Origin: an uncultured delta proteobacterium
GTDB lineage: Bacteria; Myxococcota; Myxococcia; Myxococcales; Myxococcaceae
Assembly (NCBI GenBank): GCA_963771175.1
Contig: CAVYSY010000008.1
Span: forward strand, 32,001 to 96,000
Reading direction: 5' to 3'
Length of the DNA: 64,000 nucleotides
In this document: positions 5,307 through 54,276 of the stretch, piece by piece
How the letters are laid out: each line of letters opens with the position of its first letter
Position numbering within the stretch: position 1 is the first letter of the stretch
Program-made: the position numbers and the translations under genes
Notes under the pieces: model-generated
What the model was told of the DNA's origin: nothing
What the model saw: the letters and a program-made list of their open reading frames with translations, nothing else
Databases searched by the model: none

Positions 5307-5344
5307 GAGGCGGAGCCTACCTCACCTGGTGCCTGACACCCGCG

Positions 5345-6256: not shown

Positions 6257-6262
6257 CCTTCC

Positions 6263-7156: not shown

Positions 7157-7169
7157 TCTCTGCGCTCCT

Positions 7170-7730: not shown

Positions 7731-7744
7731 AGCATCGGACGACG

Positions 7745-8903: not shown

Positions 8904-9005
8904 GGGGCGGACTCTACCCCGACCCGCCGCCGCCATTCCGCCGGAGGACGTACACACTGTGTGGGTGGACCTGACGGGGCGGGTCTGGGCTAAGCTCCGC
9001 GCCCA

Positions 9006-19516: not shown

Positions 19517-21066
<1,550 letters not shown>

Positions 21067-21096
21067 TCCGCGCCCTCCGAGGTTGATCTCACCCGG

Positions 21097-26718: not shown

Positions 26719-27010
26719 CTAGTGCACCCAATTGGAGCGGGAGCCCTGACCACCCGGGACGAAAACGAGCCGCGCGGGCCGCTCGTCTGAAATTCCTTCC
26801 GAGGCCATGGCCGCGCGGGCAGTCAGAATTTCAGACATGCGGACCAGCGGGAGCGTGTACCAGATGCGGGACGAGCTCCTCCTCCGCCACGTGGCCGAGC
26901 ACATCTCCGTGTCGCTCATCCACCACTGGCAGCAGGTGGACGCCGTAACGGTGCATCACCTCCAGCGCGCGCAGCACGGTGTCGCGCGGATAGAGGATGA
27001 TGTCAGGCAT
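26719..27010 (-). CDS. Small CBS-domain protein (frameshift near 26875)
   Basis: LYPRDTVLRALEVMHRYGVHLLPVVDERHGDVLGHV. Confidence 0.65.
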
Positions 27011-27182
27011 TGCAACGACTTGGGTCTCTACCGTGCGGCGCGTCAAGGATACCTCCAGGAAGGAAGCCCGTCTGGCCCCTGCTCGGGCCCTAGCAATCCC
27101 CCTGCCGTCCCCTCGAGGGTCCCCCACGCAACTTTTGGAAGGGATGGAGGATAATGGAGGGAGCATTGCCCGGAGCCCCCCC

Positions 27183-29207
27183 ATGTCCGTGAAGTCCACC
27201 ACCTCGTCCACCTCGTCCATCACCCGACGCCAGCCGGATGCGCTCGCCCCGCAGAAGCCCGCGACGTCCTCCAATCCACTGGAGAAGGTGGGCCAGGCGC
27301 TGCAGAACGCGGCCAAGGGCGTCGCCCAGCACGTCAACCGCGCGGTGGACGTCTTCGAGGCGAAGCTGCCCTCGCTGCCGCGGCCCGCGGGAAAGAAGCC
27401 CTGGGAGGGCATCACCCTCACCGGCAACCCGCTCAAGATTCCGCTCGACGCGCTCAAGAAGGTGGACCTGGGCGACGTCCGCAAGGTGCTCGAGCGCGTC
27501 TTCCCGCCGAAGATTCACGACGAGCAGGGCAAGCAGCTCGTCACCCAGACGCAGGACTTCCGCGACACGCTGGGCAAGGTGCGCTCGCTGTCGGCGGAGC
27601 TGGAGATGCTGCCCGCCTCCCACCCGCGCCGCGCCGAGGTGAAGAAGGCGCTGGAGGCGGCCGAGGGCAAGCTGACGGCGGACTACGGCTACACGCGCAC
27701 CACCGCCCCCAAGCCGGGCGCGATGTGGATAGACCCGCAGTTCGCCGCCAAGGAGCTGCCGGGCGGGAAGCTGAACGCGAGCCACTTCCCCACGGGCACG
27801 CCGGTGACGAAGCCGCCGGCGCCCATGGACTTCCTCTTCGGCAACGGGCCGCGCGAGCTGACGCTGGGCGAGGGGCCCTCGGCCCGCACGGTGCACACCG
27901 CCGAGGAGTACAAGGCGGCGGTGGCGGCCCGGCGCGCCGAGCTGGGCATGCCGGTGAAGGACGGTGAGCCCCAGGGCGTTCACCTGAGCCTCCAGGGTGG
28001 CGGCGGCAAGGGCAAGCGCTACGCCGCCATGGTCGCGGAGATGTATGACCTGGGCGTGGTGCCCACGAGCCTGAGCGGCACCTCGGCGGGCTCCATCGCC
28101 GCGGCGTTCGCGGCCACGGGCGCGGGCCCCGCGGAGCTCCAGGCGCTGGCGAAGGACCCCCGGTTGAGCAACCTCTACGACTGGGACCTGGACATGAAGG
28201 ACGGAGGCATCCTCAACGGCCAGCAGGCCTTCGACCTCGTCGACCAGGAGCTGCGGCGGATGACGGGGATTACGGACCGTCCGGTGACCTTCGCGGACCT
28301 GAAGGTGCCGCTGCAGCTCATCGCCGCCAAGAGCTACGACAGCGCGGCGGGTCCGGACGGGGGGACCTCGGCCAAGGACCGCATCTTCGTCTTCAGCCAG
28401 GAGACGACGCCGGATACGCCGGTGGCGCTGGCGGTGCGCGCCTCCATGGCGATTCCGGGCGTCTTCGAGCCGGTGCAGGTGGTGGACCCGGCCACGGGCC
28501 GCCGGATGCACCTGGTGGACGGGGGCGCGCTGGACAACCTGCCCATGGGCTACAACAAGAACGACCTGCCCCAGATTGGCGCGTCGCTCTACTCCCGCGC
28601 CTCGGGCCACCCGGCGGACCACCGCGACACGACGAAGCCGCTGCCCTCGGGAAACCTGGACTCGACCAACGTCCTCTGGAACGCCCTCAACGGCTACACG
28701 CTGATGAAGGACTCGGGGTCGGACTACAACGACTACATCGACCGGACGCAGCCCAAGGCCAACCAGTACATGCTGTCGCTGCCCACCTGGGACCTGACGG
28801 ACCCGACCAAGAGCAACAGCACGCTGGGCTTCGGCTACGACGCGAAGGTGGACCCCGCGCTGGACGGGCAGTCGCGCCAGGTGACGCGCGACTTCCTGCG
28901 CAACTTCCTCGACGACCTGCGCGTGCCGGGCTCGCGGGGCACGAACTACACGGCGCAGGTGCCCCAGAACATCCACTTCGACCTGCCGGTGGTGGCCAAG
29001 GGCCAGCAGTACCAGGTGAGCTACGCGGGCGGTGACAACCTCATCGTCACCTCCAAGGAAGGCGGCCATCGCAGCGTGCTGCCGGTGGGCAAGCAGCGCA
29101 TCGAGGCGATGTACATGGACAACCAGACCTTCGGAGACCTGCCGGCGCAACTGGCCTACACCATCACGAACCCGCGGAGCGTGAAGCCGAGCTGGCTGCC
29201 CTTCTGA
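27183..29207 (+). CDS. Patatin-like phospholipase with long N-terminal extension
   Basis: GGGGKG, GTSAG, RASMAIPGVF, DGG. Confidence 0.9.
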   Translation: MSVKSTTSSTSSITRRQPDALAPQKPATSSNPLEKVGQALQNAAKGVAQHVNRAVDVFEAKLPSLPRPAGKKPWEGITLTGNPLKIPLDALKKVDLGDVRKVLERVFPPKIHDEQGKQLVTQTQDFRDTLGKVRSLSAELEMLPASHPRRAEVKKALEAAEGKLTADYGYTRTTAPKPGAMWIDPQFAAKELPGGKLNASHFPTGTPVTKPPAPMDFLFGNGPRELTLGEGPSARTVHTAEEYKAAVAARRAELGMPVKDGEPQGVHLSLQGGGGKGKRYAAMVAEMYDLGVVPTSLSGTSAGSIAAAFAATGAGPAELQALAKDPRLSNLYDWDLDMKDGGILNGQQAFDLVDQELRRMTGITDRPVTFADLKVPLQLIAAKSYDSAAGPDGGTSAKDRIFVFSQETTPDTPVALAVRASMAIPGVFEPVQVVDPATGRRMHLVDGGALDNLPMGYNKNDLPQIGASLYSRASGHPADHRDTTKPLPSGNLDSTNVLWNALNGYTLMKDSGSDYNDYIDRTQPKANQYMLSLPTWDLTDPTKSNSTLGFGYDAKVDPALDGQSRQVTRDFLRNFLDDLRVPGSRGTNYTAQVPQNIHFDLPVVAKGQQYQVSYAGGDNLIVTSKEGGHRSVLPVGKQRIEAMYMDNQTFGDLPAQLAYTITNPRSVKPSWLPF

Positions 29208-29216
29208 AAAGGCAGA

Positions 29217-29245
29217 GGGCCGCCCCGGTGCATCCGGGACGGCCC
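29217..29245. terminator. Hairpin between convergent patatin and Hint-1 genes
   Basis: GGGCCGcCCCGG tgcat CCGGGaCGGCCC. Confidence 0.5.
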
Positions 29246-29279
29246 CCTCGAGGCCCCTCCGTGACTCGGGGCGGGCGCG

Positions 29280-31297
29280 CTAGCGCCGGGCGCTCTTCTG
29301 CCGGGCCTGGTGCCGGCGGAAGTCCTCATGCCAGGCGCCGTTGAGCTTCGTCAGCACCTCGCGCGTGTCCCGCACCTGCTGCTTCTCCAGCGTGAGCTGC
29401 GTCTGGCTGTCGCCCACCAGGAAGCCATTGGCATACAGCGTCCGCGCCTCGGGCCCGGCCTTGGCCAGCTCCTCCGGCGTGCCCAGCGCGAAGTTGAACA
29501 CCTCATCGTTGTAGGGCACGCGCTCCACGCCCACCAGCTTCGTCGCCCCGGCGCGCGTCAGCAGGACCTCGCCCACCTTCAGCTCGCCGGCCTGCACCAC
29601 GCCGCGCTTCGCCGTCACCATCGGGTGGGTGCCCGTCACCATCACCTCGGCGCCCTTCTCATCCCGCAGCTTCACCACCGGCTTGCTCTCGCCGCCGCGC
29701 GACACCGTCGTCACCGTGAGCGCCAGGCCGTTGCCATTGGCCAGCAGCTTGTCGCCCACCTTCACCTGCTCCACCGGCACCGACTGGCCATCCGCCTTCA
29801 CCACCTGCGTCCCCTTCGCCAGACAGGAGTTGCGCCAGTCGAGGGTCTGGACGGACGTGGTGCGCGTGTTGATGCCCGACTGGGTTGCCTGGGGCGAGGT
29901 CGCGCCGAGCACGATGCAAGTGGACTTCACCGTGGAGCGCACGACGAGCTTCGTGTTCTGGAGGGTGCTCAGGCAGTCCTTGCCGAAGTCCACCAGCCCG
30001 TCGAAGGGGAACTCCATGATGTTGTTGTCGTAGAGGTCCCGGGCGTACGGCTTGAGCGGCAGGGCGCTGTGCGCCACGACCGTGCCCGGCACCCGGTGCC
30101 ACCGGCACACTTGCCACCCGTCTCCAGGAGGATGAGGGCCACGTCGCTGTCCTGGGCGTCCACCCGGCACCAGGTCTTCAGCGAGAGCCGATGCTTGCCG
30201 CGCATGGCCAGGTAGAGGTGGCTCTGGTCATAGACACCGCTCGCGGGCTCCCAGTAGTCCCCCCGCTTGGGGACCCAGGAGCCGGAGGGCGGCCGGGACA
30301 ATTCGGCATCCACCGCGCCAATGCCGGTGAAGGGCTTGGCGAACGGGCGGAAGTCCCCCGTGACGGGGTCCTTGCTGCCCGAGGCGTAATCACAATCCAT
30401 GGCGCCCAGGAGGCTGCCGCGCTCCAGGCAGGTGCGGATGGGATTGTCCGTGAGGTGCTTGCCGATCTGCTCACGGGGGTGGGCGAAGAGGATGGTGTTG
30501 GTGAAGGGCGTGGGCGAGGGCTGCGCCCCCAACGAGCCGAGCGAGGACTCGGCCACGGTGTAGGAGATGTGCGACTCGCCCGTGGCCTCGTTGAAGGCCA
30601 TGGACACCGAGTCCACGAAGAAGACCTCATCGGAGTTGGCCTGCATGCCGAGGTCGAGCGTCGGCGTCTCCAGCACCTTGCCCGCGTACTCCTCGTAGGA
30701 CTCGGTCCCCAGCACGCGGAAGCGCTGGCGCGTCGCATCGGTGGCGAAGGCGGTGACGTCGACGTAGCCGTAGTCCGAGCCGTTGAAGCAGGTGACGAGG
30801 CCCGAGGCCTGGAACTTCACCTCGGTGGAGTCGGGGCTGACCGCGTCCGCGAGCGGCAACAGGTGGCCGCACCACGGATTCTCCCGGGTCTCCGTCGAGG
30901 TGAGCGTGTCCTTACGGGTCTGCACGCCCGGGACTCCGGCCTTCTTGTCCTTGCGCAGCTTGTCGAGGCGGCGGAAGAGCTGCGGCGAGTTCTCCGGGGT
31001 GCTACCCGAGGCCTGGAGCCGGTTCTTCACGAAGCGGAACTGCGCCTCGTCGGAGAGGTCCACGGGCATCTCCCGGCTCACCCGGGGCTTGTTGGAGTCC
31101 CGCGCCTGGGCACTGACCTGCTGATCCCACTGCGAATAGAGCTGGGCCATGTGGAGCGAGTCCTCGGCCAGGATCTCCTTGTCCACCTGCTGCGGCGCCT
31201 TCTGCTGGGCACAGCCCGCACCGAGCACCGTCAGGAATGTGAGAGCCGGGACGAGACGCTTGAGCATCCGGGGGGAGCCATTCAACGACAGCTTCAT
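29280..31297 (-). CDS. Lipoprotein with C-terminal Hint domain, copy 1 (frameshift near 30100)
   Basis: Lipobox GAGC; Hint block A CLAKGTQV, block B VTGTHPM, VFNF, block G LYANGFLVGD. Confidence 0.85.
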
Positions 31298-31654
31298 GGG
31301 GTTCACCTCAGGGGATGACAACGACAGACAATTCCTCTCGAACGACTGGGAGGGAGACCTACAGGGTGAGCAGATGTGGAGTACAGGTAGGAGAGGGGGT
31401 CAATCGCTCCTCTTGCAGGTTCGCTCAGCAACGTGGGGATGCCTCGCCGGATGATGAAGACAGGCGGAGAAAAGCTTTTTCCTGCCTGTCCAAACACAGA
31501 CACAGTCTGGGGACCCCCCGCGAACAGCGAACAATCCCGTGTGCCTCCCGGGGAGGGCACCCGGCCGGCCGAGCGGATGCCCCTGCACGCCCTCCCGCCC
31601 TGCGCGTGAGTGTTCTGCCTCGGCGCACCCTCGGAGAGCGGCCCCTGGAAAAGC

Positions 31655-31690
31655 GGAGGGGCCGCCCCGGTCACCCGAGACGGCCCCTCG
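31655..31690. terminator. Hairpin downstream of Hint-2, homologous to the one downstream of Hint-1
   Basis: GAGGGGCCGcCcCGG tcac CCGaGaCGGCCCCTC. Confidence 0.5.
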
Positions 31691-31730
31691 AGACGCTCGG
31701 CGATTCAGGGCAGGCGAGCCCGGCTCGCGC

Positions 31731-33704
31731 CTACTTCCTCGCCTGGCGCCGCTGGGACTGGCGGTAGTCCTCGTGCCAGGCGCCGTGGAGCTTCGCCAGC
31801 ACCTCGCGAGCGTCCACCTTCCGCGCCTTCTCCAGCGCCGTCTGCGCCTGGCCGTCTCCCACCAGGAAGCCGTCGGCGAACATCGTCCGCGCCTCGGGCC
31901 CCGCCTTGGCCAGCTCCTCCGGCGTACCCAGCAGGAAGTTGTAGACGGGCCCCTGGTAGGGGATGCGCTCCACCGCCACCAGCTTCGTCGCCCCGGTGCG
32001 CGTCAGCACGGCCTCGCCCACCTTCAGCTCGCTGGCCTGCACCATGCCACGCTTCACCGTCACCATCGGGTGGGTCGCCGTCACCCGCACCTCGTGGCCC
32101 TGGTCGTCCCGCAGCTTCACCAGCGCCTCGCTCTCACCGCCGCGCGACACCGCCGTCACCGTGAGCGCCTGGCCGTTGCCATTGGCCAGCAGCTTGTCCC
32201 CCACCTTCACCTGCTCCACCACCTCGTGCGTGCCATCCGCCTTCACCACCCGCGTCCCCTCGGCCATGCACAGCCGCGTGTAGTCGATGGGCTTCACCTC
32301 TTTCTTCGCCGGGCAGCGGAAGGGCTCACTCTTCGTGGGGTCGTCGGGGAAGTAGGGGTCCTTGCACGTGCCCTCGGCGTAGACCCACATCTCCAGCCGG
32401 ACGTTCTGCGAGTTGGCCACGCAGGTACCCTTGCCAAAGTCCAGGATGCCATTGAAGGGGAACTCCTGGTCCCCGATGGGCAACGTCCAGGGGAGCTCCC
32501 CCTTGCCGACCACGGTGCCACTGGTGGTGCCCTCCTCGCACCAGCCTCCCGAGTCCATCAGGATGGCCACCACCTTGCTCGTCACGGTCTCCACCTGACA
32601 ATCCTCCAGCACATGGGGCTTGAACACCCCGCGCGTGGGCACCTGGAAGCGCGTCACGTCGAAGGGCGGCACGGCCGGCTCCCAGTACGCCGTCTTGTCG
32701 GCGATCCACGTGAACGTGCCGCCGCCCGAGGTGGTGGCGTTCGTGGCGGCCACGTCCACCGCCGCGATGCCCGTGCTGCCCGTGAAGACGAAGGGAGTGA
32801 GCGTCCCATCCGGATTGGCCCGCACCGAGGCGTAATCACAGTCCGAGGAGCCGTGGAGGAACCCGCGCTCGAGGCAGATGCGGATGGGCTTGTCGTACTG
32901 AACCGGGACCAGCAGGTCCCTCGGGTGCTCGAGGACGATCTCCCCATCACCCGAGCTTGCGTGCAGCGAGGCACTCACCGAGGCATAGGTGATGTACTCC
33001 CGGCCTGTCACCTCGTCGAAGGCCAAGGCCAGCGAGTCGACGAGGAGCGCCTTGTCGGCCGCCCGCGGCAGGGAGATGTTCATGGGCGCCGTCTCCAGCA
33101 CCTTGCCGGCGTACTCCTCGTAGGACAGGCTGGTGAGCAGCGTGAAGGTCGTCTGCTCCTTGTTGGTGACGTAGGCCGTGAGGTCCACGAAGCCGTAGTC
33201 CGCGCCGTTGAAGCAGGAGGTCAGGCCCGTGCCCTCGAAGCGCGCCTGGGTCGCGTCACTGCCCTTGCCTCCGAGGAAGATCATGTGCCCGCACCACGTC
33301 TCGTCGGTCACCGACAGGGCGGACCGGGTCAGCTTCTCCAGGGGACGCTCCTCCGGCCGGAGCTGGATGTCCCGCAGGCGAGCGAAGAGCTGGGGGGCGT
33401 TCAGGGCGTTGAGCCCCGCGGCATGGAGCCGGTTCATCACGAAGCGGTGCTGCACCTTGTCGGAGAGGTCCAGCGGCATCTGATGGTTGACCCCCTTCTT
33501 CCGCACCTGCGAGCTGAGCGACTGCCGCCACTGCTCGTAGAGCAGGGTCATGGTGCGCGAGTCCTCGGCCAGGAGCTGTTTGTCCACCTGCTCGGCGGGA
33601 GGAGGTTGTCGCTGCTGACTGCACCCCGCGCCGAGCGCGGCCAGCAGCATCAGGGTGAGGAGGGGCAACGGGGACCGTGGGCCTGTCTTGGCGAGACTTC
33701 TCAT
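31731..33704 (-). CDS. Lipoprotein with C-terminal Hint domain, copy 2
   Basis: Lipobox GAGC; CMAEGTRV, VTATHPM, VYNF, MFADGFLVGD; intact 657 aa. Confidence 0.9.
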   Translation of the reverse strand: MRSLAKTGPRSPLPLLTLMLLAALGAGCSQQRQPPPAEQVDKQLLAEDSRTMTLLYEQWRQSLSSQVRKKGVNHQMPLDLSDKVQHRFVMNRLHAAGLNALNAPQLFARLRDIQLRPEERPLEKLTRSALSVTDETWCGHMIFLGGKGSDATQARFEGTGLTSCFNGADYGFVDLTAYVTNKEQTTFTLLTSLSYEEYAGKVLETAPMNISLPRAADKALLVDSLALAFDEVTGREYITYASVSASLHASSGDGEIVLEHPRDLLVPVQYDKPIRICLERGFLHGSSDCDYASVRANPDGTLTPFVFTGSTGIAAVDVAATNATTSGGGTFTWIADKTAYWEPAVPPFDVTRFQVPTRGVFKPHVLEDCQVETVTSKVVAILMDSGGWCEEGTTSGTVVGKGELPWTLPIGDQEFPFNGILDFGKGTCVANSQNVRLEMWVYAEGTCKDPYFPDDPTKSEPFRCPAKKEVKPIDYTRLCMAEGTRVVKADGTHEVVEQVKVGDKLLANGNGQALTVTAVSRGGESEALVKLRDDQGHEVRVTATHPMVTVKRGMVQASELKVGEAVLTRTGATKLVAVERIPYQGPVYNFLLGTPEELAKAGPEARTMFADGFLVGDGQAQTALEKARKVDAREVLAKLHGAWHEDYRQSQRRQARK

Positions 33705-34024
33705 GGCTCATTCCATCCGAAGCAAGGGGCTGAAGACGCAGCTCTCCGAATCCAGGGAGAGGAGGAGCCCTGGTGGCGCGTTCACTCGTGGGTTGCGAAG
33801 TGGTGGGTCGGAATGCACACGCCCAGGCTCACCTCCACATTGTGTCCGCCGGGTACATTGTGCAGTGGGAACGCAACTGCTTGTGAATCGCCCAACACCC
33901 GAGCCGGAGCCGCCGTCAGCCGCTCGACGTTCAAGGGTGACCTTGGATGGATGCGGCCCTCCACTCCTGAGCGAGGGCCGCAATCCCTCTCAATCCATCA
34001 GAGGTTGAGTGAGAAAACTTTTTC

Positions 34025-34615
34025 CTACTTCTTCTTCACCGACTCGAGCAGCTTGCGGAAGCCCTTCTCGGCGCCGGCGACGGTGCGCTCGGGGCCGGTG
34101 AGCTTGAAGAAGATGGCGCCCTCGGGGCCCTCGACGATGGCGCCCAGCAGGCGGTAGCCGGGCTTGGGGGCGGAGGGGCCCATCATGGGGCCGCCGCCGG
34201 TATAGGTGCCCTTCACGTCCACGGTGGTGAGGGGCAGCCCGCTGACGGTCTCCTTCTTGGTGCGCGCGTCCTTGTCCGTCACCGGGGCGCCGTCGGCCTT
34301 CTGGAACTGGTTCAGCCAGCGCTTCACGTTGGCGTCCACCCCGCCGCCCTGGCCCTCGCCGAAGTAGAAGATGGCCAGCTCGGCCGCGTCCGTGTCGCCC
34401 TTGGCGGGAGCGATGCGATAGGTGGCCACGCGCATGGGCCGGGCCCCCTGCAGCTCCCAGCCCGAGGGAGCCGTCCAGGTGAGGCCGCCCGCCTCCGAGG
34501 AGGCCTGCGCGGCCGGCTGCTGCTGCGCGTGCGGGGCCTGCTGCGTCTGCTGCGCCTGGGCGTGGGCCGCGCCCACCGCCGCCACCATCGTCATCGCACT
34601 GATCAGTCTTTTCAT
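34025..34615 (-). CDS. Secreted hypothetical protein
   Basis: Signal peptide AHA; WTAPSGW, MRVATY, GGGVDANVKRWLNQF, FFKLTGP. Confidence 0.75.
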   Translation of the reverse strand: MKRLISAMTMVAAVGAAHAQAQQTQQAPHAQQQPAAQASSEAGGLTWTAPSGWELQGARPMRVATYRIAPAKGDTDAAELAIFYFGEGQGGGVDANVKRWLNQFQKADGAPVTDKDARTKKETVSGLPLTTVDVKGTYTGGGPMMGPSAPKPGYRLLGAIVEGPEGAIFFKLTGPERTVAGAEKGFRKLLESVKKK

Positions 34616-34841
34616 GGGGCGGAACCTAACCCGGGAACGCCCCCATGGCACCGGCCCTTTCCCGCTCGACGCAACGAGTCGGACCCCCTGCATGGAACCC
34701 TGGCTCCTCACGGCCGTCCACCAGGGAGTTTCCTGTCTTGAAACCGACGCACCGTGGCCCACATGGCGAGGATGCGGAGCCCCCGGGTACGACCCACATT
34801 GGCCCCCGGATAACTGGACCTTCGCGAGAAAGGACTCGCGC

Positions 34842-36036
34842 ATGAAGAAGACACTCACGGTCGTGACACTGCTCGCCGCCGGCGCCAGCCAGGCGTCGAG
34901 TCTCGCGGTGGACAGCCAAGGCGGCCGAGCCACCGGCATGGGCGCGGTGGGGGCGGCGAGCGCCCGGGACGCCTCCGCCATCTACTACAACCCGGCGGGT
35001 ATCCTCGGAGTGAACAAGCTGGACCTCCAGCTCGGGGACACGCTCATCCTGGCCGACCTGTCCTTCACCCCCGAGGGTGGCTCGAAGGAGGGCAAGCTGA
35101 TGCCCTCCCCGCCGCCCCACGGCTACTTCGCCTACAAGTTCCACGACAAGGTCGCGGCCGGTGTGGGTGTCTTCGTGCCCTACGGCTCCAACGTCAAGTG
35201 GCCGGATGACTTCTCGGGACGCTTCATCGCCCAGGAGTCGAGTCTGCTCACCCTCGACATCAACCCGACGGTGGCCTTCGCTCCGGTGGACTGGATACGC
35301 CTCGCGGCCGGTGTGCAGATCGAGTACGGCTCGTTCGGCCTCACGCAGTTCGTGAGCCCGCTCATCCCTGGCGCGTCGGCGGAACTCTCGGCCACCGCGT
35401 GGGGCTTCGGCTACAACGCGGGCCTCCAGGTGGACGTGGTGAAGGACCTGTTCACCGTCGGGGCGCACTACCGCAGCGAGGTGAAGCTGGGCTTCGAGGG
35501 TGACGTGGACTTCCGGGACGTGCCGCCCCCGGCCGCCGGGCTGGTGCCCCCGGACCAGGACTTCTCGCTGACCTGGAGGATGCCCGCCTCGCTCTCGCTG
35601 GGTGTGTCCGTCACCCCGCTCCCGCGGCTGACACTGGCCGCCGACGCCAACTGGTTCGATTGGGGAAGCACCCAGGCGCTCACCGTCGAGCTTCCAGACG
35701 ACTCCGGAGTTCAGCCAGACGCTGCCAAAGGACTGGCACACCCGGTGGAACTTCCACATCGGCGGCGAGTACGGGGTGACGGACGCCCTGGCGGTGCGCG
35801 CGGGCTTCATCTACGACCCGACGCCCACCCCCGAGGAGACCCTCACGCCGGATATTCCGGACGCCGACCGTCTGAACTTCGCCGTGGGCGCCGGCTACAA
35901 GTTCGGCGCCTTCCGGGCGGACCTGGCCTACCAGCTCGTCGTGCTGCAGGAGCAGCGGAGCACCTTCCCGCTGCTGCCCGGCACCTACGACGGCACGGGC
36001 CACGTGATTGGTCTGACACTCGGCTACTCGCGGTAA
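34842..36036 (+). CDS. OmpP1/FadL outer-membrane fatty-acid transporter (frameshift near 35705)
   Basis: GMGAVG..ARDASAIYYNPAG, INPTVAF, GFGYNAG, RAGFIYDPTP, PDADR. Confidence 0.88.
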
Positions 36037-36074
36037 CCCACCCGCCCTGTCAGGCAGGGTATGAAGGGCAGGAT

Positions 36075-36117
36075 GGGGCTCGGCACTCCCGTGGGTGTCG
36101 GGCCTCGTTCTTTTCTT
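36075..36117 (+). terminator. Intrinsic terminator after the FadL gene
   Basis: GGGGCTCGGCACTC ccgt GGGTGTCGGGCCTC followed by TTCTTTTCTT. Confidence 0.55.
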
Positions 36118-36134
36118 CCCAGAGGTGGAACGAC

Positions 36135-37415
36135 GTGAGCAGTCAGAAGCCCGGACGCAATGACCCCTGCCCCTGCGGCAGTGGCAAGAAGTACAAGGCC
36201 TGCCATGCCTCCGAGGACCGGGCACGCGAGACAGCCGCTCCGCCCGCCGCCCCCGCCCACCCGCTCGCGAGGGACCTGCAGGCGGCGATGGACATGCTCG
36301 GTGAGTCCGACATGTCGCGCGTCTCGGAGACGCTGGGCCATCTGGGCGAGCTGCTGAAGGAGTGGGGACCCGGCCCGGGCCTGCGCTTCGACGCCGAGGG
36401 TTTCGACAAGCACGTGTCCCACGCGCTCGAGCGCCTGGACGAGGCCGTCGAGAGAGAGCCCGCCCAGGCCCGGCACCTGCTGCGCGTGGGGACCGTGCGA
36501 GAGCTGGGCACGCGCGCCTTCCTCGAGCGGCTGCGCGCCACACTGCTGACTCGGGCCACCACGGCCGGCCTCTCCGCCGAGGACCGGCAGGCGCTGTGCC
36601 TGGGCGCGCTGCTCGCCTCCACGCCGAAGAGCGGCAGGTTCCAGCCCGAGGATCGGCCCGTGCTGGACGTGGTGTTCGACGTCCAGTTCCGCGAGTGGAG
36701 CTCCCGCCAGCGCCAGGAGCTGGCCTCGAAGCTGGAGACGCTCGTGTCGGGCGCGAACGACATCTCCGACGAGGCCCGCGACGCGCTCCGCAAGGCGGGA
36801 CAGGGCGAGCTGGAGCCGCTGGTGAAGTACGTGGAGGGGGACCCGAAGCTCGCCGCGCGCATCGCCCAGGAAGCCCGGGAGCGCTCGGCCCGGGTGGAGG
36901 CCGCGATGCGCGAGCCCGCCACGCCGTCCGTCTTCACCCCCGAGGAGCAGATCTGGCTCACCACCGTCCTCTGGGAGCCGATGCGCGCGTTGAAGAATCC
37001 CGAGGGGAACGCGGACGCCCGGCGCGCGGCGGTGACAGGCTTTCTCGGTGCGGCGAAGGCAGCGCTGCGCGATGACAGGGATTTCATCACGGGGATGCTG
37101 GAGCGGATGCGAGCCCAGACCCAGGACACGAAGCTCGACGAGGCGACGCGTGCCTTCTTCAGCGACGCGGCCGTGGCCTTCGAGGCGGAGCCGGTGCGCA
37201 TGGTGCTCGCCGCCATCCTCACCTCTCGCAACGAGGCACAGGCACGCTCGGCCGAGGAGCAGGTGGTGCGCGCGGACCTGGAGGCCCTGACGCAGTGGAC
37301 GCCCGGGGATCTCGAGCCCTACCGCAAGCTGCTCGCGGACATGAACCTGCCCGCCGCCGCCGAGCGCATCCACCGCGCCCAGCTCTGGCTCGCCAGCCAT
37401 CCCGTCTCGGTGTGA
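36135..37415 (+). CDS. SEC-C motif protein
   Basis: GRNDPCPCGSGKKYKACH at the N-terminus followed by a helical body. Confidence 0.85.
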   Translation: MSSQKPGRNDPCPCGSGKKYKACHASEDRARETAAPPAAPAHPLARDLQAAMDMLGESDMSRVSETLGHLGELLKEWGPGPGLRFDAEGFDKHVSHALERLDEAVEREPAQARHLLRVGTVRELGTRAFLERLRATLLTRATTAGLSAEDRQALCLGALLASTPKSGRFQPEDRPVLDVVFDVQFREWSSRQRQELASKLETLVSGANDISDEARDALRKAGQGELEPLVKYVEGDPKLAARIAQEARERSARVEAAMREPATPSVFTPEEQIWLTTVLWEPMRALKNPEGNADARRAAVTGFLGAAKAALRDDRDFITGMLERMRAQTQDTKLDEATRAFFSDAAVAFEAEPVRMVLAAILTSRNEAQARSAEEQVVRADLEALTQWTPGDLEPYRKLLADMNLPAAAERIHRAQLWLASHPVSV

Positions 37416-39899: not shown

Positions 39900-41448
39900 T
39901 CAGGGCTCCGGGAAGAGGAGCAGGCCTCGCGAGGTGTCGATGACATACACGTACCCGTCTCCCGGCACGCGCATGCCAATCGCCCCCTCGTAGAAGCTCT
40001 TCCCCCGGCCCGGATCCGCCTCACGGAAGGTGTTGAAGTACGCCACCTCCTTCGGGCTCTCCGGCGTGGACACGTCCAGCACCCTCACCCCGTGCTGGTA
40101 GTGCGCGATGTAGAGCCGCTGGTCCTTCAGCACCATGTTGTGGATGGACGCACTCGCCTCCAGCCTGTACTCGCCCAGCCGCTTCGGGTTCGCCGCGTCC
40201 GTCACGTCTAGCACCCGCAGGTGCGCGCCCCAGTTCTCCCCGCCCTCGAAGGCGATGAGCCGGTCCCCGAACCGCCCCACCGCGTTCGCGTGGCTCGTCG
40301 CGTGGCGGGTAGGTGTACGCCCCCAGCTTCTTCGTCTGGGCCGGGTCGCTCACGTCGACGATGAGGTACCCGCCCGACCAGTGGTTGATGTACAGCCGCC
40401 CGTCGAAGGCCAGCGCGTCATGCGGATAGCCCACCCTCGAGTCGCTGACGGCTCCCGGCTCCGCGTACTCCCCGAGCAGCACCGGCTCCAGGGGCTCGTG
40501 GATGTCGAAGATGAGCGTCTTTGGCGTCGGGCCCGAGGACATGGCGTACAACCGCCCCCCCTCCACGAAAACGGTGTGCACGTTGATCTGCCCCCCTCCC
40601 GGGTAGCCACGCAGCAGTTGCGGATCCGCCGGATTCGAGATGTCGAAGACGATGACGCCCGTGTTCGCGCTCGCCACGTACAGCGCGTTATCCTTCGCCC
40701 ACACCCCGTTCCAGTAGTTGTCCGTCGGCAGGCTGATCGTCTTCTTCAGCACCGGAGCGGTCTTGTCGCTCACGTCGAAGACCGAGAGCCCTCCCCCCTC
40801 GGTGCCGTCGCGGATGGACACCACGTAGGCATGGCCCTGGGTCACATAGATGTCCACGGGCAGGCCCTGCGCCACGAACGACTCGGAGGTGAGCCGCAGC
40901 CCCGAGGCCTCGGCCTCCCCCGCGCGCGGTGCCCACTTCTCCGCCAGGAAGGTGCCCGCGCCGGACACATTGCCGTTGCGGCAGTTGACGAAGCACCCGT
41001 ACAGCCGAGTGCCCTCGGCCCGGCAGCCGACGATGGAGTTGCGCTGGGTGACCGTCGCGGACGTGCTCCGCGTGCTCGACAGGAAGAAGTTGTCCGCGTC
41101 CACCTGCCGCTGCGTCGGCGTGCCCCCACGGAAGGAATCGAGGCTGCCGTCCCCCGAGATGCGGAAGGAGCCCGCGCCGATGGCGGGCGACTCGCCGTCC
41201 CACCGGTACACCATCGTGAAGAGGCCATCCCGTGCCAGTCCGCCCAGCGAGGCTTTTTCACATCCTGAGAGATTGAACGTCGCCTGCTCCCCACAGGCCG
41301 CCGAGGTGTCGGAGAGCAACTCGCACGCGGCGTAGCGGCCGGTGTCCTCCCAGTCCCCCTTCTCTTCCAGCGGCTCCTCGGAGCTGCAGCCGAGCAGCGA
41401 CAGACCTCCGACAAACAGGACCGCACGGGCACTACGCGTCCAACCCAT
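39900..41448 (-). CDS. LVIVD-repeat beta-propeller lipoprotein (frameshift near 40310)
   Basis: Lipobox LLGC; GLSVFDVSD, GVIVFDISNP, YLIVDVSDP, VLDVTD, GVRVLDVSTP. Confidence 0.85.
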
Positions 41449-41640
41449 GTGAGCGTTCCCCTTTCATGACACCGGGCGGGCACGATAGCGCCACCGCCGC
41501 CCCTCTCGGAGGCCGCCCTCCGCGCACGCACAGGGAACGAGCAGGCAGTAGCCCTCTATTGGCCAATCGCCCCGCTCGCGCCGGTATACCGGGTGGCGCT
41601 CGACGTTTATCGTGCGGGCCCCGCCCACGGAGCACTCACC

Positions 41641-46297: not shown

Positions 46298-47278
46298 TCA
46301 GGCCACTCGCACGTGCCGGACGGGTGCGGCCTGCTCGGCCTCGCCCTCCTGGTAGCGGCCGGTCATGATGGACCAGTCGACGTTGGCGCGAATCCAGCGG
46401 CGCATGCCCGTGACGTAGCTGGCCACCTGGGCGTCGTGCTCGCCGAACGAGGGCAGCTTCTTCTCCAGCTCCAGGAAGTGCCGCACCGCCTCGTCGTGCA
46501 TCTCCACCGCCACGTCGATGGCCGCCTGCAGCTCCAGCCCGTGCTGCTTCCGCAGCGAGAACACCAGGTTGGGGTGGAACTCGTCCTTCATGTCCTGCGC
46601 CAGCGAGAAGAGGTCGTTCGCCCAGGCAATCACGTCCGTGGCCACCACGGTGAGCTCCGTGAGGGCCGGGTGGGACAGCACCGCCTCCGGCAGGAAGAAG
46701 CCCTCGATGGCTTCAATCTGCGTGAACACCATGTACGTGCCCACCGACAGGCGGCGCAGCTCGATATAGGTGTCCACGTCGAGGCACTCGCGCTGGCCGC
46801 GCGTCTCCGCCTCCCAGATGGTGCCCGTGAAGTAGGCGTGGCAGGCCTTGATGAAGCGCTCCATCCACTCCGGCCCCATCAGCTCCGCCATCCGCTCGCG
46901 GATGCTCGCCAGCAGCCAGAGCAGCGGCGGCGCGTCGTGGTACGGAATGGCCCCCTGCAGCACGGCCATCGCCATCTCGCTCTGCTGGCGCACCCAGTCC
47001 GCCGGCACGTGGCCCACGTCCACCTGGTCATCCCACGAGAAGTTCCAGATGAGGAAGTCGAGCGCCGCGCGGATCCGCTCCTTCGGCGCCGTGGGGTGGC
47101 AGCGGCCCAGCAGCACCGGGAAGTGGCTGCGCTGCAGCTTGCGGAACACCCCGTGCCTCGAGTGCAGCCCCAGCAGCTTCGCCCAGCGCTCCAGCGCCTC
47201 GCCCTCGATGTCCTTCATCTGCGGGTGAAGCTCCGGCGTGAACGGGCAATACAGCTTGGGAAGATGAAAAGCGCTCAT
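46298..47278 (-). CDS. Class I terpene synthase
   Basis: DDQVD aspartate-rich motif, YIELRR sensor, NDLFSLAQD (NSE variant), WSIMTGRY. Confidence 0.92.
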   Translation of the reverse strand: MSAFHLPKLYCPFTPELHPQMKDIEGEALERWAKLLGLHSRHGVFRKLQRSHFPVLLGRCHPTAPKERIRAALDFLIWNFSWDDQVDVGHVPADWVRQQSEMAMAVLQGAIPYHDAPPLLWLLASIRERMAELMGPEWMERFIKACHAYFTGTIWEAETRGQRECLDVDTYIELRRLSVGTYMVFTQIEAIEGFFLPEAVLSHPALTELTVVATDVIAWANDLFSLAQDMKDEFHPNLVFSLRKQHGLELQAAIDVAVEMHDEAVRHFLELEKKLPSFGEHDAQVASYVTGMRRWIRANVDWSIMTGRYQEGEAEQAAPVRHVRVA

Positions 47279-47795
47279 GGTGCAGTCCCCCTCCGACCTG
47301 CGTGTCCGGCCCGGGAGGAGCCCAATGCAAGGGGCGGACCTGGAGCCCTCCGCCTCCGTGCGCTCCCTCCGGAAGCGAGCCGTCCGAGGAGGGGCACGTA
47401 GAATTCCGCCCTGGCTTTCACCGCATTCCTGCTTTTCCTCCAATTTCCGGTAGGTGTCCGCGACCCAGTAGGTCATCCGTGCCCCGCCCCCTCGGAAACC
47501 CACGCCCGTGAAAGTTTTCAGGGGCGAGGGGAAACCCATCCATTGTTCGTGGAGTGTTTGCGTTTGGGTGGAAGGTGCCTCCCCGTTTCCTCCGGGAGCG
47601 GAAAGCAGCATCCACGACGGGTGGGGCCGGCAGGTCCGCGAGGACCCGGGACCCGAGGCCCCTTCCTGGAAGACGGGTGGGGGCTCGTCCGTCCGCTCGC
47701 CGCCGCTCCGTTCCGCCCGTTGGCGGTGCTCCCTACCTTCCTTCAAGCGGAAGTCAGGGACACGACAACAGAGACTCCGCGAGGGAGACAGACGG

Positions 47796-48380
47796 ATGCG
47801 GACGTACAGGTTCGATCATTTCAAGGCCGAGAAACCGGAGCCCAGCGTCACCACCCCGGAAGGCGCCAGGCAGACGCATCCAGCGGAGGAGACGAAGCCC
47901 ACGGTGCCGCCCTCGGAAGAGGGGCAGCTCCACTACGGGCGCCAGCACGCGCAGACGGCGGAGCTGTACCACCAGCGCCGCCAGGAGCGGGAGGAGGCGG
48001 AGCAGCTGGGCGTCGCCGGAGTCCAGCAGGAGCCGCTGGGCGGCGAAGCGCCCCCCCTGGAGACGAGGAAGCAGAGGGCCGCGCCGCGCGAGGAGCCCGT
48101 CATCCACGGCAAGGAGGATGTGGAGCAGCACGCGGGCTCCATGCCGGAGGAGTCCGGGCGCGCGGGGTTGCGCGGCCTGGCCCAGCAGGCGGTGACGAGC
48201 GTGCTCCAGGCCGCGCGCGAGGCCTCCCGGGGTCGCCCGCTGGTGGGCGCGAAGAAGCTCGCCGGTGACGCGGTGTCCGGCGCGCTGAAGGTGGCACGCG
48301 AGGTGTCGGCCCGCCGCGCCTCCCGGAAGTCCTCGGAGGCGCCAAAGGGCGGCAAGGGGAAGAAGGGCAGGAAGCGCTAG
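47796..48380 (+). CDS. Hypothetical protein
   Basis: GGGAGA RBS; MRTYRFDHFK start; charged, basic C-terminus. Confidence 0.7.
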   Translation: MRTYRFDHFKAEKPEPSVTTPEGARQTHPAEETKPTVPPSEEGQLHYGRQHAQTAELYHQRRQEREEAEQLGVAGVQQEPLGGEAPPLETRKQRAAPREEPVIHGKEDVEQHAGSMPEESGRAGLRGLAQQAVTSVLQAAREASRGRPLVGAKKLAGDAVSGALKVAREVSARRASRKSSEAPKGGKGKKGRKR

Positions 48381-51888: not shown

Positions 51889-52131
51889 CTTTCCCACAAC
51901 CTAACCCTTCCCCTCCCCAGGGGTGGGGTTTCACGCGAGCAGGAGCGCGGAAGCCGTCCGGGCGGGTGGGACGGACGAGGCATGGGGCGCCGGGCGGCCC
52001 TGCTGCCGGGCGAGGGGAATCCCAGGCCCTCCCCGGGCTCCTCCCGCGAGTTTGCTGGTACGAGGCCGTGACACGCCCCCATGAGCACCCTCAGGGCTGG
52101 CCGGTGGGGGGCAGCCTTCGGGAGCGCATGC

Positions 52132-54214
52132 ATGCGAAACCAGGAACCACCTCGCCCCCCCCAGGGGGTCGACCCGAAGGCGGGAGGGCGGCAGCGACTG
52201 GCGAACTTCCTCCGCCAGTACCGGGAGGACATCCTCTCGGACTGGGAGCACGCCCTGCACCCGCGCCACCCGGAGCAGCCCCCGAGCGGCGCGCTGCTGC
52301 GCGACCACATCCCCGACTTCCTGGAGCGGCTGGCGGACGCAGCGGAGCACCCCCGGGAAGGAGCCGCCGCCCTGGTGTCCCAGGCCGTCACCGACGAGCA
52401 CGCCCTGGAGCGGCTGGAGCAGGGGTACGAGCCGGGAGAGGTGGCCCTGGAGTACGGCCTGCTGCGCCACAGCATCCTCCAGTGCCTGCGGCGCGAGGAC
52501 TACGCACCGAGCTTCGCCGAGCTGGAGCTGCTCGACGAGGCCATCGACCAGGGCGTGATGCGCGCAGTGAGCAGCTACGCGAAGGTGCGTGAGCGGATGC
52601 TGAAGACGCTGGAGCGCGTGTCCCGGGCGGCGCTGGAGAGCGAGGACGTGGACACCTTCCTGCCCAGACTGCTCCAGGCGCTGATGGAGGCGGCGGTGGC
52701 GGTGGACGGGACCTCCATCATGCTGCGGGAGGGGGACCGGCTGCGGGTGCGCGCGGCCGTGGGGCTCGGCGCGGAGAAGGCACTGACGGACGACTACTCC
52801 ATCCCCATCGGCAAGGGCATCTCCGGCACGGTCGCCGCCGACCGCCGCACCATCACCTCGCGCTCGGCGGCCACGGACTCGCGGCTGGAATACGACCTCA
52901 TCCGCAGGCTCGGCATCCGCGCCAGCTACAGCGTCCCGCTGGTGCACCGGGACAAGCTGGTGGGCGTGGCACACATGAGCTCGCGGACCGTCTTCGACTT
53001 CAGCGAGTCGGACAAGCTGCTCTTCCGCACCCTGGTCACCCGCGCCACCAGCTTCATCGTGCAGGCGGAGCTGGCCCAGCGCGAGCGGCAGGCACGGGCC
53101 GAGGCCCAGCGCACACTGGCCCTGCTCGACACGCTGCTGGAGGCCTCCCCAGTGGGCATCGGATTCCTGGACCAGGAGCTGCGCTACCTGCGCGCCAACG
53201 AGACGCTGGCGAAACTCACCGGCCACCCAGTGGCCTTCCTCCTGGGAAAGGCGTTCCGCGAGGTGGTGCCCGCGTGGGTCGCCGACAGCTTCGAGCCCCT
53301 CTACCGCCGCGTGCTGGAGACGGGAGAGCCGGTGTCCAACCACGAGTTCATCGGCCGCGCCCCCGACGACACCGGCCCCGAGCGCCACTGGCTGGGCAAC
53401 TACTACCCGGTGCGCTCCGAGAGCGGCGAGGTGATGGGGCTGGGGTGCGTGGTGGTGGAAATCACCCAGCAGAAGGAGGTGGAGGCCGAGCTGCGCCGCT
53501 CCGGCGAGCTGCGCGAGCAGCTCATGGGGGTGCTGGGGCATGACCTGCGCAACCCCCTCAACGCCATCAGCGCCTCGGCCTTCCTGCTGCAGAGGACCGA
53601 GGACCTGAGCGACGGGGTCCCAGCGCGCGGTGGAGCGCATCCGCAACAGCGCGGCGAGGATGGCGCGGATGCTCAGCGACATCCTGGACTTCGCGCGCAG
53701 CAGCATGGGCGGCGGGCTGCCGGTGCACCGCGAGCGGGTGAACCTGCACGACATCAGCCGCACGGCGCTGGAGGAGCTCCAGGTGACCAACCCGGGCCGG
53801 CGGCTGGAGCTGGACGTGCGGGGGGACGGCTGGGGCTGGTGGGACGCGGACCGGATGGCCCAGGTGATGGGCAACCTGGTGAGCAATGCGCTGCAACACG
53901 GACGCCCGGACACGCCGGTACGCGTGGAGGTGCGCGACGCCGGCCCCGAGGTGCTCCTCTCCGTCCACAACGAGGGCGCGCCCATCCCTCCCGAGCTGCG
54001 GCCCGTGCTCTTCCAGCCGTTCCGGCGAGGCACCACGGGCAAGGCCGCCACCCGCAGCGTGGGGCTGGGGCTCTACATCGTCCGGCAGGTGGCGCACGCG
54101 CACGGAGGCGAGGTGACGGTCCACTCCACCGAGAGCGACGGCACCACCTTCACGGTGCGCCTGCCGCGCGGCGCCCCCGAGCCCGGGAAGCTCCCGACCG
54201 AAGCGCCCGGGTGA
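52132..54214 (+). CDS. RsbRD_N-GAF-PAS sensor histidine kinase (frameshift near 53620)
   Basis: HALERLEQGY..EYGLLR, GAF, PAS, GHDLRNPL, NLVSNALQH, GLGLYI. Confidence 0.9.
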
Positions 54215-54276
54215 CGCCCACGTCCGCACCAGGGCCTCCCGCCTGTCCCCGGCGGTGTGTTAACGCTCCGGCGCCC

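Follow-up and report, generated by a model that had tools for sequence, protein, structure and literature searches.

Tandem predicted lipoproteins with a C-terminal Hint domain in a myxococcal genome: candidates for self-cleavage without splicing

In a 64,000-nucleotide stretch of DNA from an uncultured delta proteobacterium of the family Myxococcaceae, a soil myxobacterium (NCBI GenBank assembly GCA_963771175.1, contig CAVYSY010000008.1, positions 32,001 to 96,000 of the forward strand; hereafter the window, to which all positions refer), the minus strand carries two paralogous genes arranged head to tail (copy 1 and copy 2, Table 1; window G+C 68-70%). Each encodes a predicted lipoprotein made up of a large N-terminal region without a named family (the N-domain), a Hint domain and a short conserved tail. 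We lean, if not strongly, towards the view that these are exported, disulfide-bonded lipoproteins whose terminal Hint domain would cut itself at its first residue (Cys1) without splicing, a reading that builds on the conservation of the catalytic residues among 135 relatives, on a C-terminus unsuited to splicing and on the paired occurrence of the N-domain cysteines. The two genes are new members of a family that was described in silico in 2008.

Architecture of the pair, its Hint domain and its family

A preliminary description of the locus, made by reading the sequence, had assigned one layout (lipobox, conserved N-terminal region, Hint domain, tail) to both paralogs. All four parts were recovered in both, including the N-terminal motifs DLSD..Q.RFV.NRL, WCGH, CFNG.DYG and CLERG...DCDYAS, whereas copy 1, which had been read through silently, is not one open frame in the window. 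By BLASTP, copy 2 matched the two pieces of copy 1 with E-values of 1e-90 (157/394 identical) and 1e-95 (156/276 identical), and the identity between the paralogs differed by region (N-domain residues 29-393, 41.6%; pre-Hint residues 400-478, 26%; Hint residues 479-617, 76.3%; tail, 55%), in line with the divergent pre-Hint region and the highly conserved Hint domain noted earlier. Since the paralogs share no long identical tract of DNA (the best is 300 nt at 82%), recent gene conversion is not the cause of the conserved Hint domain. The lipoboxes, called by eye and by regular expression, read LLAALGAGC-SQQ in copy 2 and LTVLGAGC-AQQ in copy 1, with LGAC, LSAC or LGVGC at the same place in the orthologs. 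The ATG of copy 2 is preceded by GGATGG, and translation of copy 1 probably begins with the ATG at 31297 (GAGG upstream). Orthologs of copy 2 (62-83% identity) measure 625-664 aa and the intact orthologs of copy 1 662-672 aa.

Table 1. Positions of the two genes, their protein regions and adjoining elements in the window
Feature	Positions	Strand	Evidence
Copy 2, intact gene, including stop codon; 657 aa (P0001)	31731..33704	(-)	Open reading frame (ORF) list and translation
Copy 2, signal peptide and lipobox (residues 1-28; lipidated Cys28 predicted, +2 Ser)	33621..33704	(-)	Read from sequence
Copy 2, N-domain (residues 29-478; no named family or fold; four covarying Cys pairs 138-164, 277-289, 369-447, 389-428)	32271..33620	(-)	Pfam, NCBIfam and PDB searches; Cys co-occurrence
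Copy 2, Hint domain (residues 479-617; Cys1 C479, G522/E524, T542, H545, N589, G616-D617)	31854..32270	(-)	Profile searches; alignment columns
Copy 2, conserved hydrophilic tail (residues 618-657; Q621, L639, W643, D646, Y647)	31734..31853	(-)	Alignment columns
Terminator-like 15-bp GC hairpin and U tract, directly 3' of copy 2; resembles the copy 1 hairpin (family D14)	31647..31689	(-)	Hairpin search
Copy 1, paralog, split over two reading frames in the window (pieces P0002 and P0003)	29280..31297	(-)	ORF list; BLASTP
Copy 1, signal and lipobox	31211-31297	(-)	Read from sequence
Copy 1, frame break; bases 30089 and 30091 extra relative to related assemblies	30089..30091	(-)	Contigs of runs X1-X4
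Copy 1, Hint domain (Cys1, residue 116 of P0003, through D of LVGD)	29409..29825	(-)	Sequence; Pfam; BLASTP
Copy 1, tail (42 aa)	29283..29408	(-)	Sequence
Terminator-like 15-bp GC hairpin and U tract, directly 3' of copy 1	29206..29248	(-)	Hairpin search

Searches of the window proteins against Pfam returned matches to six Hint-clan families, every one of them starting at C479 and all below the curated cut-off: Hom_end_hint was the best (27.3 and 30.1 bits; cut-off 32.1), the Hedgehog-type Hint model PF01079 reached 20.3 and 14.0 bits (cut-off 29.7), and PT-HINT (PF07591) 22.4 and 22.3 bits (cut-off 27.7). The NCBIfam model TIGR01445 (intein_Nterm) aligned its position 1 to C479. Among 78 relatives, matches at E<=0.01 were obtained with Vint (50), PT-HINT (40), Hom_end_hint (38), Hint_2 (36) and Hint (PF01079; 33). 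Compared with solved structures, the profile of 78 relatives matched 8w20 (1.7e-10) and 2lwy, a bacterial intein-like (BIL) domain (4e-10), the Hint-plus-tail profile matched 2lwy (E 5.9e-12) and 8w20 (7.8e-9), and hhalign to a canonical PT-HINT domain encoded in the same genome gave a probability of 96.1% with Cys1 to VYNF aligned. The Hint fold, which the preliminary description had proposed from motifs, is secure at the level of profiles.

Column counts were taken from an alignment of 135 full-length sequences (19 and 116 from two protein searches; fragments shorter than ~520 aa left out). Cys1 (C479) and the block-B His (H545) were each present in 135/135, T542 was Thr in 129 and Ser in 6, and G522 (134/135), E524 (132/135), N589 (132/135), G616 (133/135), D617 (134/135) and Q621 (134/135) approached invariance. 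The residue before Cys1 was small (Ser in 77, Gly in 43), the one after D617 was variable (Gly 31, Ser 29, Asn 23, Ala 21, Leu 11, and others; Gly in copy 2), and Cys1 and D617 stood a median of 139 aa apart. With 20/139 columns conserved to at least 90% (vs 9/450 in the N-domain), the Hint domain is the best-conserved part of the protein. E524 lies 46 residues from Cys1, like D243 in human Sonic hedgehog (SHH), and also aligns with a Glu or Asp of inteins and BILs. Thr B:7, His B:10 and the residue at F:4 are described by Mills, Johnson and Perler (2014, PMC4031507) as acting on the N-terminal junction; the family has Asn at F:4, as does 2lwy. To judge from these residues, the Hint domain is likely to be catalytically competent for the first step (the N-to-S acyl shift), that is, for thioester formation and N-terminal cleavage.

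Canonical splicing is excluded, as far as the alignment tells, by the G-D pair that takes the place of His-Asn and by the variable residue that follows it. Compared with class 1 inteins, the window Hint domains possess a Cys at position 1 and the block-B TxxH and lack a C-terminal His-Asn (or Asn/Gln/Asp) with a Cys/Ser/Thr +1 nucleophile; nor are they inserted within a conserved host protein with rejoined halves, just a ~41-aa tail following them. The counts bear out the earlier observation of Cys1, TxxH (T542/H545 in copy 2) and an LVGD ending in both copies, and agree with the proposal attached to it, namely that a thioester may form without splicing; His-Asn, whose retention in most homologs had been named as evidence against that proposal, was found at G616-D617 in none of the 135. 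In the account given by the same review (PMC4031507), BILs are without a +1 nucleophile, and type-B BILs are without block-G similarity and cleave without splicing.

The tail, described earlier as basic and ~35 aa long, is indeed basic (net charge +5 in each copy) and measures 40 aa in copy 2 and 42 aa in copy 1. Throughout the 135 sequences it has a median length of 41 aa (<30 aa in 10/135), a mean grand average of hydropathy (GRAVY, Kyte-Doolittle) of -1.11 and a mean charge of +2.4; it starts with xxxQ in 134/135 and contains a W..D(Y/F)-type motif in 117/135 (W643 in 114/135, D646 in 124/135). Furthermore, its conservation is helically periodic (moment 0.235 at 100 degrees vs 0.03 at 160 degrees).

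An exhaustive search of 1.84 billion cluster representatives (clusters at the 50% identity level) yielded 1488 proteins at E<=0.001, of which 449 reached E<=1e-10 and 88 reached E<=1e-30. Among the 150 matches listed, the Hint domain and tail were always found at the extreme C-terminus of proteins of ~530-720 aa, fragments aside. By regular expression, the N-termini of the 135 aligned sequences were lipobox-like in 76, otherwise hydrophobic in 33 and neither in 26 (some of them truncated). The relatives, annotated solely as 'Hint domain-containing protein' or 'hypothetical', bore the labels Archangium, Vitiosangium, Myxococcus, Corallococcus, Pyxidicoccus, Polyangium, Clostridia, Blastocatellia, Zooshikella and Chitinispirillaceae, as well as Photorhabdus, Yersinia and Serratia; at a higher rank, members are labelled Acidobacteriota, Fibrobacterota, Gammaproteobacteria and Clostridia. 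A Pseudoalteromonas match was full length, and those from Tistrella, Azospirillum and Embleya covered the C-terminal part only (23-54% of the query). Two further protein searches added no new taxa, most of their matches being Archangium-type relatives. Among 401 genomes of the window's phylum, 92 held a match at E<=1e-10 (one genome, G196, with a weak Hint-only match, was counted in the tallies only) and 58 a full-length one (E<=1e-100), all 58 within the window's own taxonomic family (f1); the protein family profile matched copy 2 at E 5.5e-161.

The tandem pair was present in 12/12 same-genus genomes, and when all 28 ORFs of the BLAST cluster were placed in a quick maximum-likelihood tree (none dropped) the copy-1-like and copy-2-like sequences formed sister clades (support 99 and 100, joined at 93). 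Identity to same-genus orthologs amounted to 58-68% for the tandem pair, 69-88% for its neighbours and 85-86% for a third paralog. This third paralog, found elsewhere in the same genome (G000:C28:30492-32342, plus strand, 616 aa), has an ordinary signal peptide and no lipobox, shares the Cys1, T..HP, ANGFLVGD and tail motifs, and falls into a distant, slowly evolving clade of the tree. Two distant metagenomic matches (P0238 and P0239) carry several tandem Hint domains, one of them together with a Tim44-like lipid-binding domain (PF04280, 73 bits); they were rejected as members of the family on account of their different architecture.

N-domain cysteines, proposed cleavage and competing explanations

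The N-domain (~450 aa) matched no family in Pfam, NCBIfam or PADLOC, and a profile search against the PDB gave chance-level antibody matches only. In the ESM Atlas the N-domain of copy 2 had no usable match. For the ortholog P0009 (Atlas model, pLDDT 0.63) a TM of 0.5 by either measure was reached almost solely by clusters of the same family, namely other clusters of 'Hint domain-containing proteins' with 66 (Myxococcota), 137 (Pseudomonadota) and 88 (Bacillota) members; the two exceptions, one cluster of DUF6147 (0.62) and one without a name (0.51), did so by the small row only, and both stayed under the bar of the service. Within the family the N-domain is homologous throughout the 135 sequences (P261 in 135, C277 in 132, R280 in 131, C289 in 132).

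The cysteines of the N-domain come and go in pairs. For positions 138-164 both residues were present in 61 of the 135 sequences and neither in 74, with no singletons; for 277-289 both were present in 132 and neither in 3, again with no singletons; for 369-447 the counts were 46, 88 and 1, and for 389-428 they were 118, 16 and 1. Such a paired gain and loss is characteristic of an exported protein with four disulfides. In 125/135 relatives the Hint domain and tail contain no Cys besides Cys1, and an invariant unpaired Cys in a disulfide-paired exported protein is best explained as a catalytic nucleophile. Two further observations concern this region. Copy 2 has a ninth N-domain cysteine (C464, window 32313-32315), 15 residues before Cys1, which occurs in 11/135 sequences (the copy-2 clade) and has no covarying partner; that it might form a disulfide with Cys1 and so put the reaction under redox control is pure speculation. 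One relative (P0149, 468 aa) stops just before the position of Cys1 and could be either a stand-alone N-domain or the product of a cut contig.

Taken together, we propose that the precursor would be exported by Sec and lipidated at Cys28, the lipobox and the +2 residue suggesting a location in the outer membrane, and that the N-domain would fold oxidatively with its four disulfides. Cys1, as the sole free conserved Cys, would then attack the 478-479 bond with the help of the block-B Thr and His, and the resulting thioester would be resolved without splicing, most simply by water. The products would be a lipid-anchored N-domain (~48 kDa), presumably the cargo of the system, and a soluble Hint-plus-tail fragment (~20 kDa).

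Several points weigh against this proposal. The Pfam and NCBIfam Hint matches of the window proteins all fall under the curated cut-offs, and the 135 sequences are the best matches to copy 2, among which degenerate members without the catalytic residues could be under-sampled. Our literature searches found no experiment on any member of the family, cleavage being read from conserved residues only. Moreover, the near-invariant G616-D617, Q621 and the tail motif are not explained by simple hydrolysis and point to more than the release of the N-domain, while the placement of D617 relative to the terminal Asn of inteins, and any contact between tail and active site, rest on an alignment made by eye.

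These last residues lend themselves to an alternative in which the thioester is transferred to a non-sterol nucleophile (an amine or hydroxyl on an envelope or target molecule, be it a lipid head group, peptidoglycan, a glycan or the lysine of a protein), the N-domain is tethered covalently via its C-terminus, and G-D..Q together with the tail recruit or position the acceptor. The near-invariant G616, D617 and Q621 and the conserved helical face of the tail exceed the needs of hydrolysis, and precedents are described in type-A BILs, whose thioesters are resolved by amines (PMC4031507), and in Tetrahymena BIL2, which forms an isopeptide to lysine (PMC8616854). We nevertheless regard such a transfer as unlikely: no evidence pointed to any acceptor, no neighbouring gene was conserved across genera, the tail is shorter than 30 aa in 10/135 and devoid of the W..D motif in 18/135, and the occurrence of the family in both diderm and monoderm phyla makes a single envelope acceptor improbable. 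Equally unlikely, in our estimate, is the bolder form of this idea, in which the Hint domain acts as a single-use envelope ligase that passes its thioester on to an amine or hydroxyl group borne by a lipid, by a component of the cell wall or by a surface molecule of prey or host, with G-D..Q and the helical tail positioning the acceptor; if true, it would constitute a bacterial counterpart of Hedgehog cholesteroylation, with another acceptor and in several phyla.

Cleavage at both ends, with cyclisation of D617 adding to the N-terminal cut and freeing a ~40-aa basic tail peptide, would likewise give a function to D617 (134/135), and we hold it to be comparably doubtful. By eye, ANGFLVGD lines up with the ..WVHN of the PT-HINT domain of the same genome, at the place of the intein terminal Asn, the residue after D617 is mostly small, and a terminal Asp or Gln is used for C-terminal cleavage by some inteins (PMC4031507). 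On the other side, the penultimate His that assists cyclisation is Gly in 133/135, the ANGFLVGD block was aligned by no tool (hhalign ends at VYNF), and the alignment of Bürglin (PMC2362128) sets the motif on an internal, uncleaved strand of Hog.

The loss of the C-terminal catalytic block and the sub-threshold scores with every curated Hint model might also be taken to mean that autoprocessing has been lost altogether and that the Hint domain persists in a structural or binding role, within a surface protein that stays uncleaved. We consider this rather improbable, given that the 135 relatives, drawn from several phyla, never deviate at Cys1 or the block-B His and seldom at the Thr, and that an unpaired Cys has been kept in an otherwise disulfide-paired exported protein.

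The Hedgehog-like autoprocessing put forward in the preliminary description, in which the 3-OH of a sterol attacks the thioester, the tail serves as the sterol-recognition region (SRR) and the N-domain carries a lipid at both ends, fared worst. It is recommended by the Hedgehog-like layout (cargo, Hint domain with Cys1/Thr/His, no terminal Asn, conserved extension) and by strong oxidosqualene-cyclase matches in some family-bearing genera. Searching the same 401 genomes with NCBIfam TIGR03463 (a strong match being E<=1e-150) we found such a match in 1/12 same-genus genomes (G294, 5e-247), the best values in the other 11 and in the window's own genome ranging from 8e-4 to 7e-20 (own genome 7e-20). 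By a tally made by hand, 26/58 genomes with a full-length member had a strong match and 32/58 had none, and in two genera (g6 and g7) the cyclase occurs (6/7 and 9/9) without the family (0/7 and 0/9). Furthermore, members of the family carry the labels Clostridia, Blastocatellia, Chitinispirillaceae, Zooshikella, Pseudoalteromonas, Photorhabdus, Yersinia and Serratia, none of which is known to produce sterols. The hydrophilic tail (median 41 aa, GRAVY -1.11) contrasts with the hydrophobic, membrane-bound SRR of human SHH (97 aa; PMC7906309), and PF01079 stays under its cut-off (20.3 and 14.0 vs 29.7 bits). Additional file 17 of Bürglin (PMC2362128) does align the AGGFLVGD of the family with the Hog motif EGTIVVNS; the column which it aligns with the catalytic Asp of Hedgehog is variable (Asp in 56/135, Ala in copy 2), and the conserved E524 is shared with inteins and BILs. 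We therefore judge sterol transfer to be very improbable.

Self-cleavage without splicing, with water as the simplest resolver of the thioester, is thus the reading that we retain, and the window adds no evidence for an unusual answer to the question of thioester resolution. The question reaches beyond this locus, as at least 449 protein clusters (50% identity, E<=1e-10) from several phyla share one design, an exported cargo followed by a terminal Hint domain with an intact first-step active site. To learn how the thioester is resolved would decide whether Hedgehog-type chemistry serves bacteria in maturing or tethering their surface proteins, and would give a function to the large unnamed N-domain. 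For protein engineering, a natural periplasm-compatible Hint domain that cleaves and is incompetent for splicing may be useful.

Reading frame of copy 1 and surroundings of the pair

In the window the first ~400 codons of copy 1 lie in the ORF 29969-31321 and the remainder in the ORF 29280-30170, in another frame. We compared the window over 29200-36200 with the contigs (not the reads) of four near-identical public runs (X1 from one study, X2-X4 from another), which derive from other strains and differ from it by 1-8%. Bases 30089 and 30091, situated exactly at the break, are absent from the contigs of 4/4 runs (2 studies); once they are removed the reading frame of copy 1 is continuous, and no further stop or indel breaks it. 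Among the copy 1 substitutions listed between the window and X1 (a sample of 27), 14 are synonymous and 13 non-synonymous, and in the Hint and tail part 4/4 are synonymous. The contig of X1 is also without the single window bases 34621, 34689, 34734 and 35694.

Other genes of the window are interrupted or shortened as well. A FadL/TodX-type outer-membrane transporter gene adjoining the pair (34800-36036, plus strand) is split into Toluene_X positions 3-303 and 307-417 in two frames; its frame changes near 35694, a base missing in run X1, and its first frame runs by chance into the next gene, which encodes a SEC-C-motif protein (~36.1-37.4 kb). An LVIVD-repeat gene (39903-41463, minus strand) is spread over two overlapping frames, an ATP-synthase alpha/beta subunit gene (20085-21083, plus strand) is without a start and begins at profile position 61, and a PAS/GAF histidine-kinase gene (52072-55881, plus strand) is interrupted inside HisKA. 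Together with the completeness of the assembly (81.66% in 58 contigs, the 12 same-genus genomes searched being listed at 100%), these broken and shortened genes suggest an indel-prone assembly.

As the two bases are absent from 4/4 related runs and neighbouring genes are broken likewise, the frame break is probably an assembly error, and the organism itself probably has an intact copy 1. That copy 1 is a true pseudogene in this strain is unlikely, if not negligibly so. The window DNA itself carries the break, and the runs come from other strains; the ~1.4% difference between the window strain and X1 in this region leaves room for a real, strain-specific frameshift, and rare variants drop out of contigs, both of which count against an intact pair. 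Opposed to this are the in-frame sequence of all four related assemblies at the break, the splitting of at least two more genes within 11 kb in the same way, the further single extra bases relative to X1, the lack of any other stop or indel in copy 1, and substitutions that do not look neutral (14 synonymous vs 13 non-synonymous among those listed).

With a hairpin and U tract 3' of each gene, copies 1 and 2 look like separate transcription units. A consensus terminator scan, which missed the hairpin after copy 2, and a sigma-70-like promoter scan returned nothing, an Rfam search matched no family, and no sigma-54-like site was found upstream of either copy. None of the public runs holding near-identical DNA was listed as RNA, and a search for phage matches gave none. 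The spacer between the genes contains a 32-nt near-perfect palindrome (31459-31490, centre AAAAGCTTTT), ~165 nt upstream of the start of copy 1, which folds better than 200/200 shuffles (z -2.6) and could be an operator or a terminator.

Within the genus the gene order reads MobA-like transferase, (patatin), the pair, a small secreted ORF, FadL and SEC-C; no neighbouring gene is conserved across genera, nor in the Pseudoalteromonas or Tistrella loci. Convergent to copy 1 lies a patatin-like phospholipase gene (26997-29207, plus strand, 736 aa, with a ~330-aa extension without a family match), which 3 of the 5 same-genus loci examined have at the same place (L027-L029) and the other 2 lack. A gene for a small secreted protein (34025-34981, minus strand, ~195 aa from MKRLISAM..., no family match) lies directly upstream of the pair; this arrangement is kept in 6/6 same-genus loci examined (the window and L026-L030) and not in other genera. 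There was no immunity-like small gene among the neighbours, and a SitA-type or polymorphic-toxin reading is for that reason without support. Farther away we observed parts of a MoxR-vWA-beta-propeller ternary system (3037-9092, minus strand; bpMoxR at 7875-9092 with 283 bits, bpX5 at 4857-5321, its frame overlapping the next ORF in another frame) and, 13 kb from the pair, a terpene synthase gene (46301-47815, minus strand, Terpene_syn_C_2 E 6e-43), for which no link to the lipoproteins was seen.

The family in print and its likeness to known systems

Bacterial proteins with a C-terminal 'novel Hint-like' domain were reported by Bürglin in 2008 (BMC Genomics, PMC2362128), in a section on Vint genes. 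The members given in Additional files 16 and 17 (MXAN_6253, STIAU_1829, plu1731, Reinekea MED297_11140 and proteins of Serratia and Yersinia intermedia) are described as weakly similar at the N-terminus, with signal peptides and two conserved upstream Cys; according to the same source the group had also been seen by Dassa and Pietrokovski, and the paper gives neither a function nor an experiment for it. One ORF of our data (L041), in the same BLAST cluster and tree as the window genes, has the same N- and C-terminal strings as the printed STIAU_1829. These strings and the shared printed motifs indicate that the family had already been noticed, and on such sequence grounds we assign the window genes to it: they show full-length homology to a member, lipobox secretion signals, C277 and C289 (132/135, always together) and a C-terminal Hint domain with motifs A and B. 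Searches of the literature on MXAN_6253 and plu1731 found nothing, and one on recent bacterial Hint autoprocessing found reviews only; Dori-Bachash et al. (2009) may contain cleavage data.

The window genes have in common with the printed family the signal peptide and, in the same order, C..R...DCDY, SC(L/M)AEGT, T..HP, ANG.LVGD..MQ and LP..W..DY. They differ from it in that the window pair and its orthologs are predicted lipoproteins, whereas MXAN_6253 and STIAU_1829 have a signal of the ...GW-S type without a lipobox Cys, and in that the pair is a tandem duplication found throughout the genus. Possibly related to the family is a C-type BIL reported from predatory bacteria together with a new N-terminal domain, PPS-1 (Dori-Bachash et al. 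2009, as mentioned in PMC9185962).

The BIL2 of Tetrahymena BUBL (6y75, 6tmm) resembles the proposed system in that a thioester is passed to an outside lysine and not spliced (PMC8616854), and gives a weak profile match (E 0.035); it differs in being eukaryotic, cytosolic and zinc-regulated, in its ubiquitin-like flanks, and in having no N-domain or tail like those of the family. Hedgehog Hog shares a cargo followed by a Hint domain with Cys1/Thr/His, a small residue before Cys1, the absence of a terminal Asn and a conserved extension. This extension is short and hydrophilic in the family, whereas Hog has a 97-aa membrane-binding helix-loop-helix (PMC7906309); moreover, the family shows no link to sterol synthesis and PF01079 remains below its cut-off in the window proteins. 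With type-B BILs (Amitai 2003; Dassa 2004, as presented in the reviews PMC4031507 and PMC7765530) the family shares a Hint domain in secreted, variable bacterial proteins and the expectation of cleavage over splicing; those BILs are described as embedded in variable regions and flanked by protein at either end, whereas the Hint domain of the present family is terminal, with a fixed ~41-aa tail.

The nearest solved sequence relative is a type-A BIL, 2lwy from Clostridium thermocellum, and with type-A BIL and PT-HINT domains the family has Cys1, T..HP and VYNF (Asn F:4) in common. The canonical PT-HINT domain of the window's own genome (G000:C15:9403-9801; L048, ORF 928-2214; 85.5 bits), which was our control, displays CFIAGT, TADHP and WVHN followed by S, and is succeeded by a ~100-aa C-terminal domain at the end of an Rhs-like protein, so that it looks like an ordinary polymorphic-toxin module. 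In type-A BIL and PT-HINT domains the last residues are His-Asn, and a C-terminal toxin or cargo domain comes next, whereas the family described here has G-D and then its tail only.

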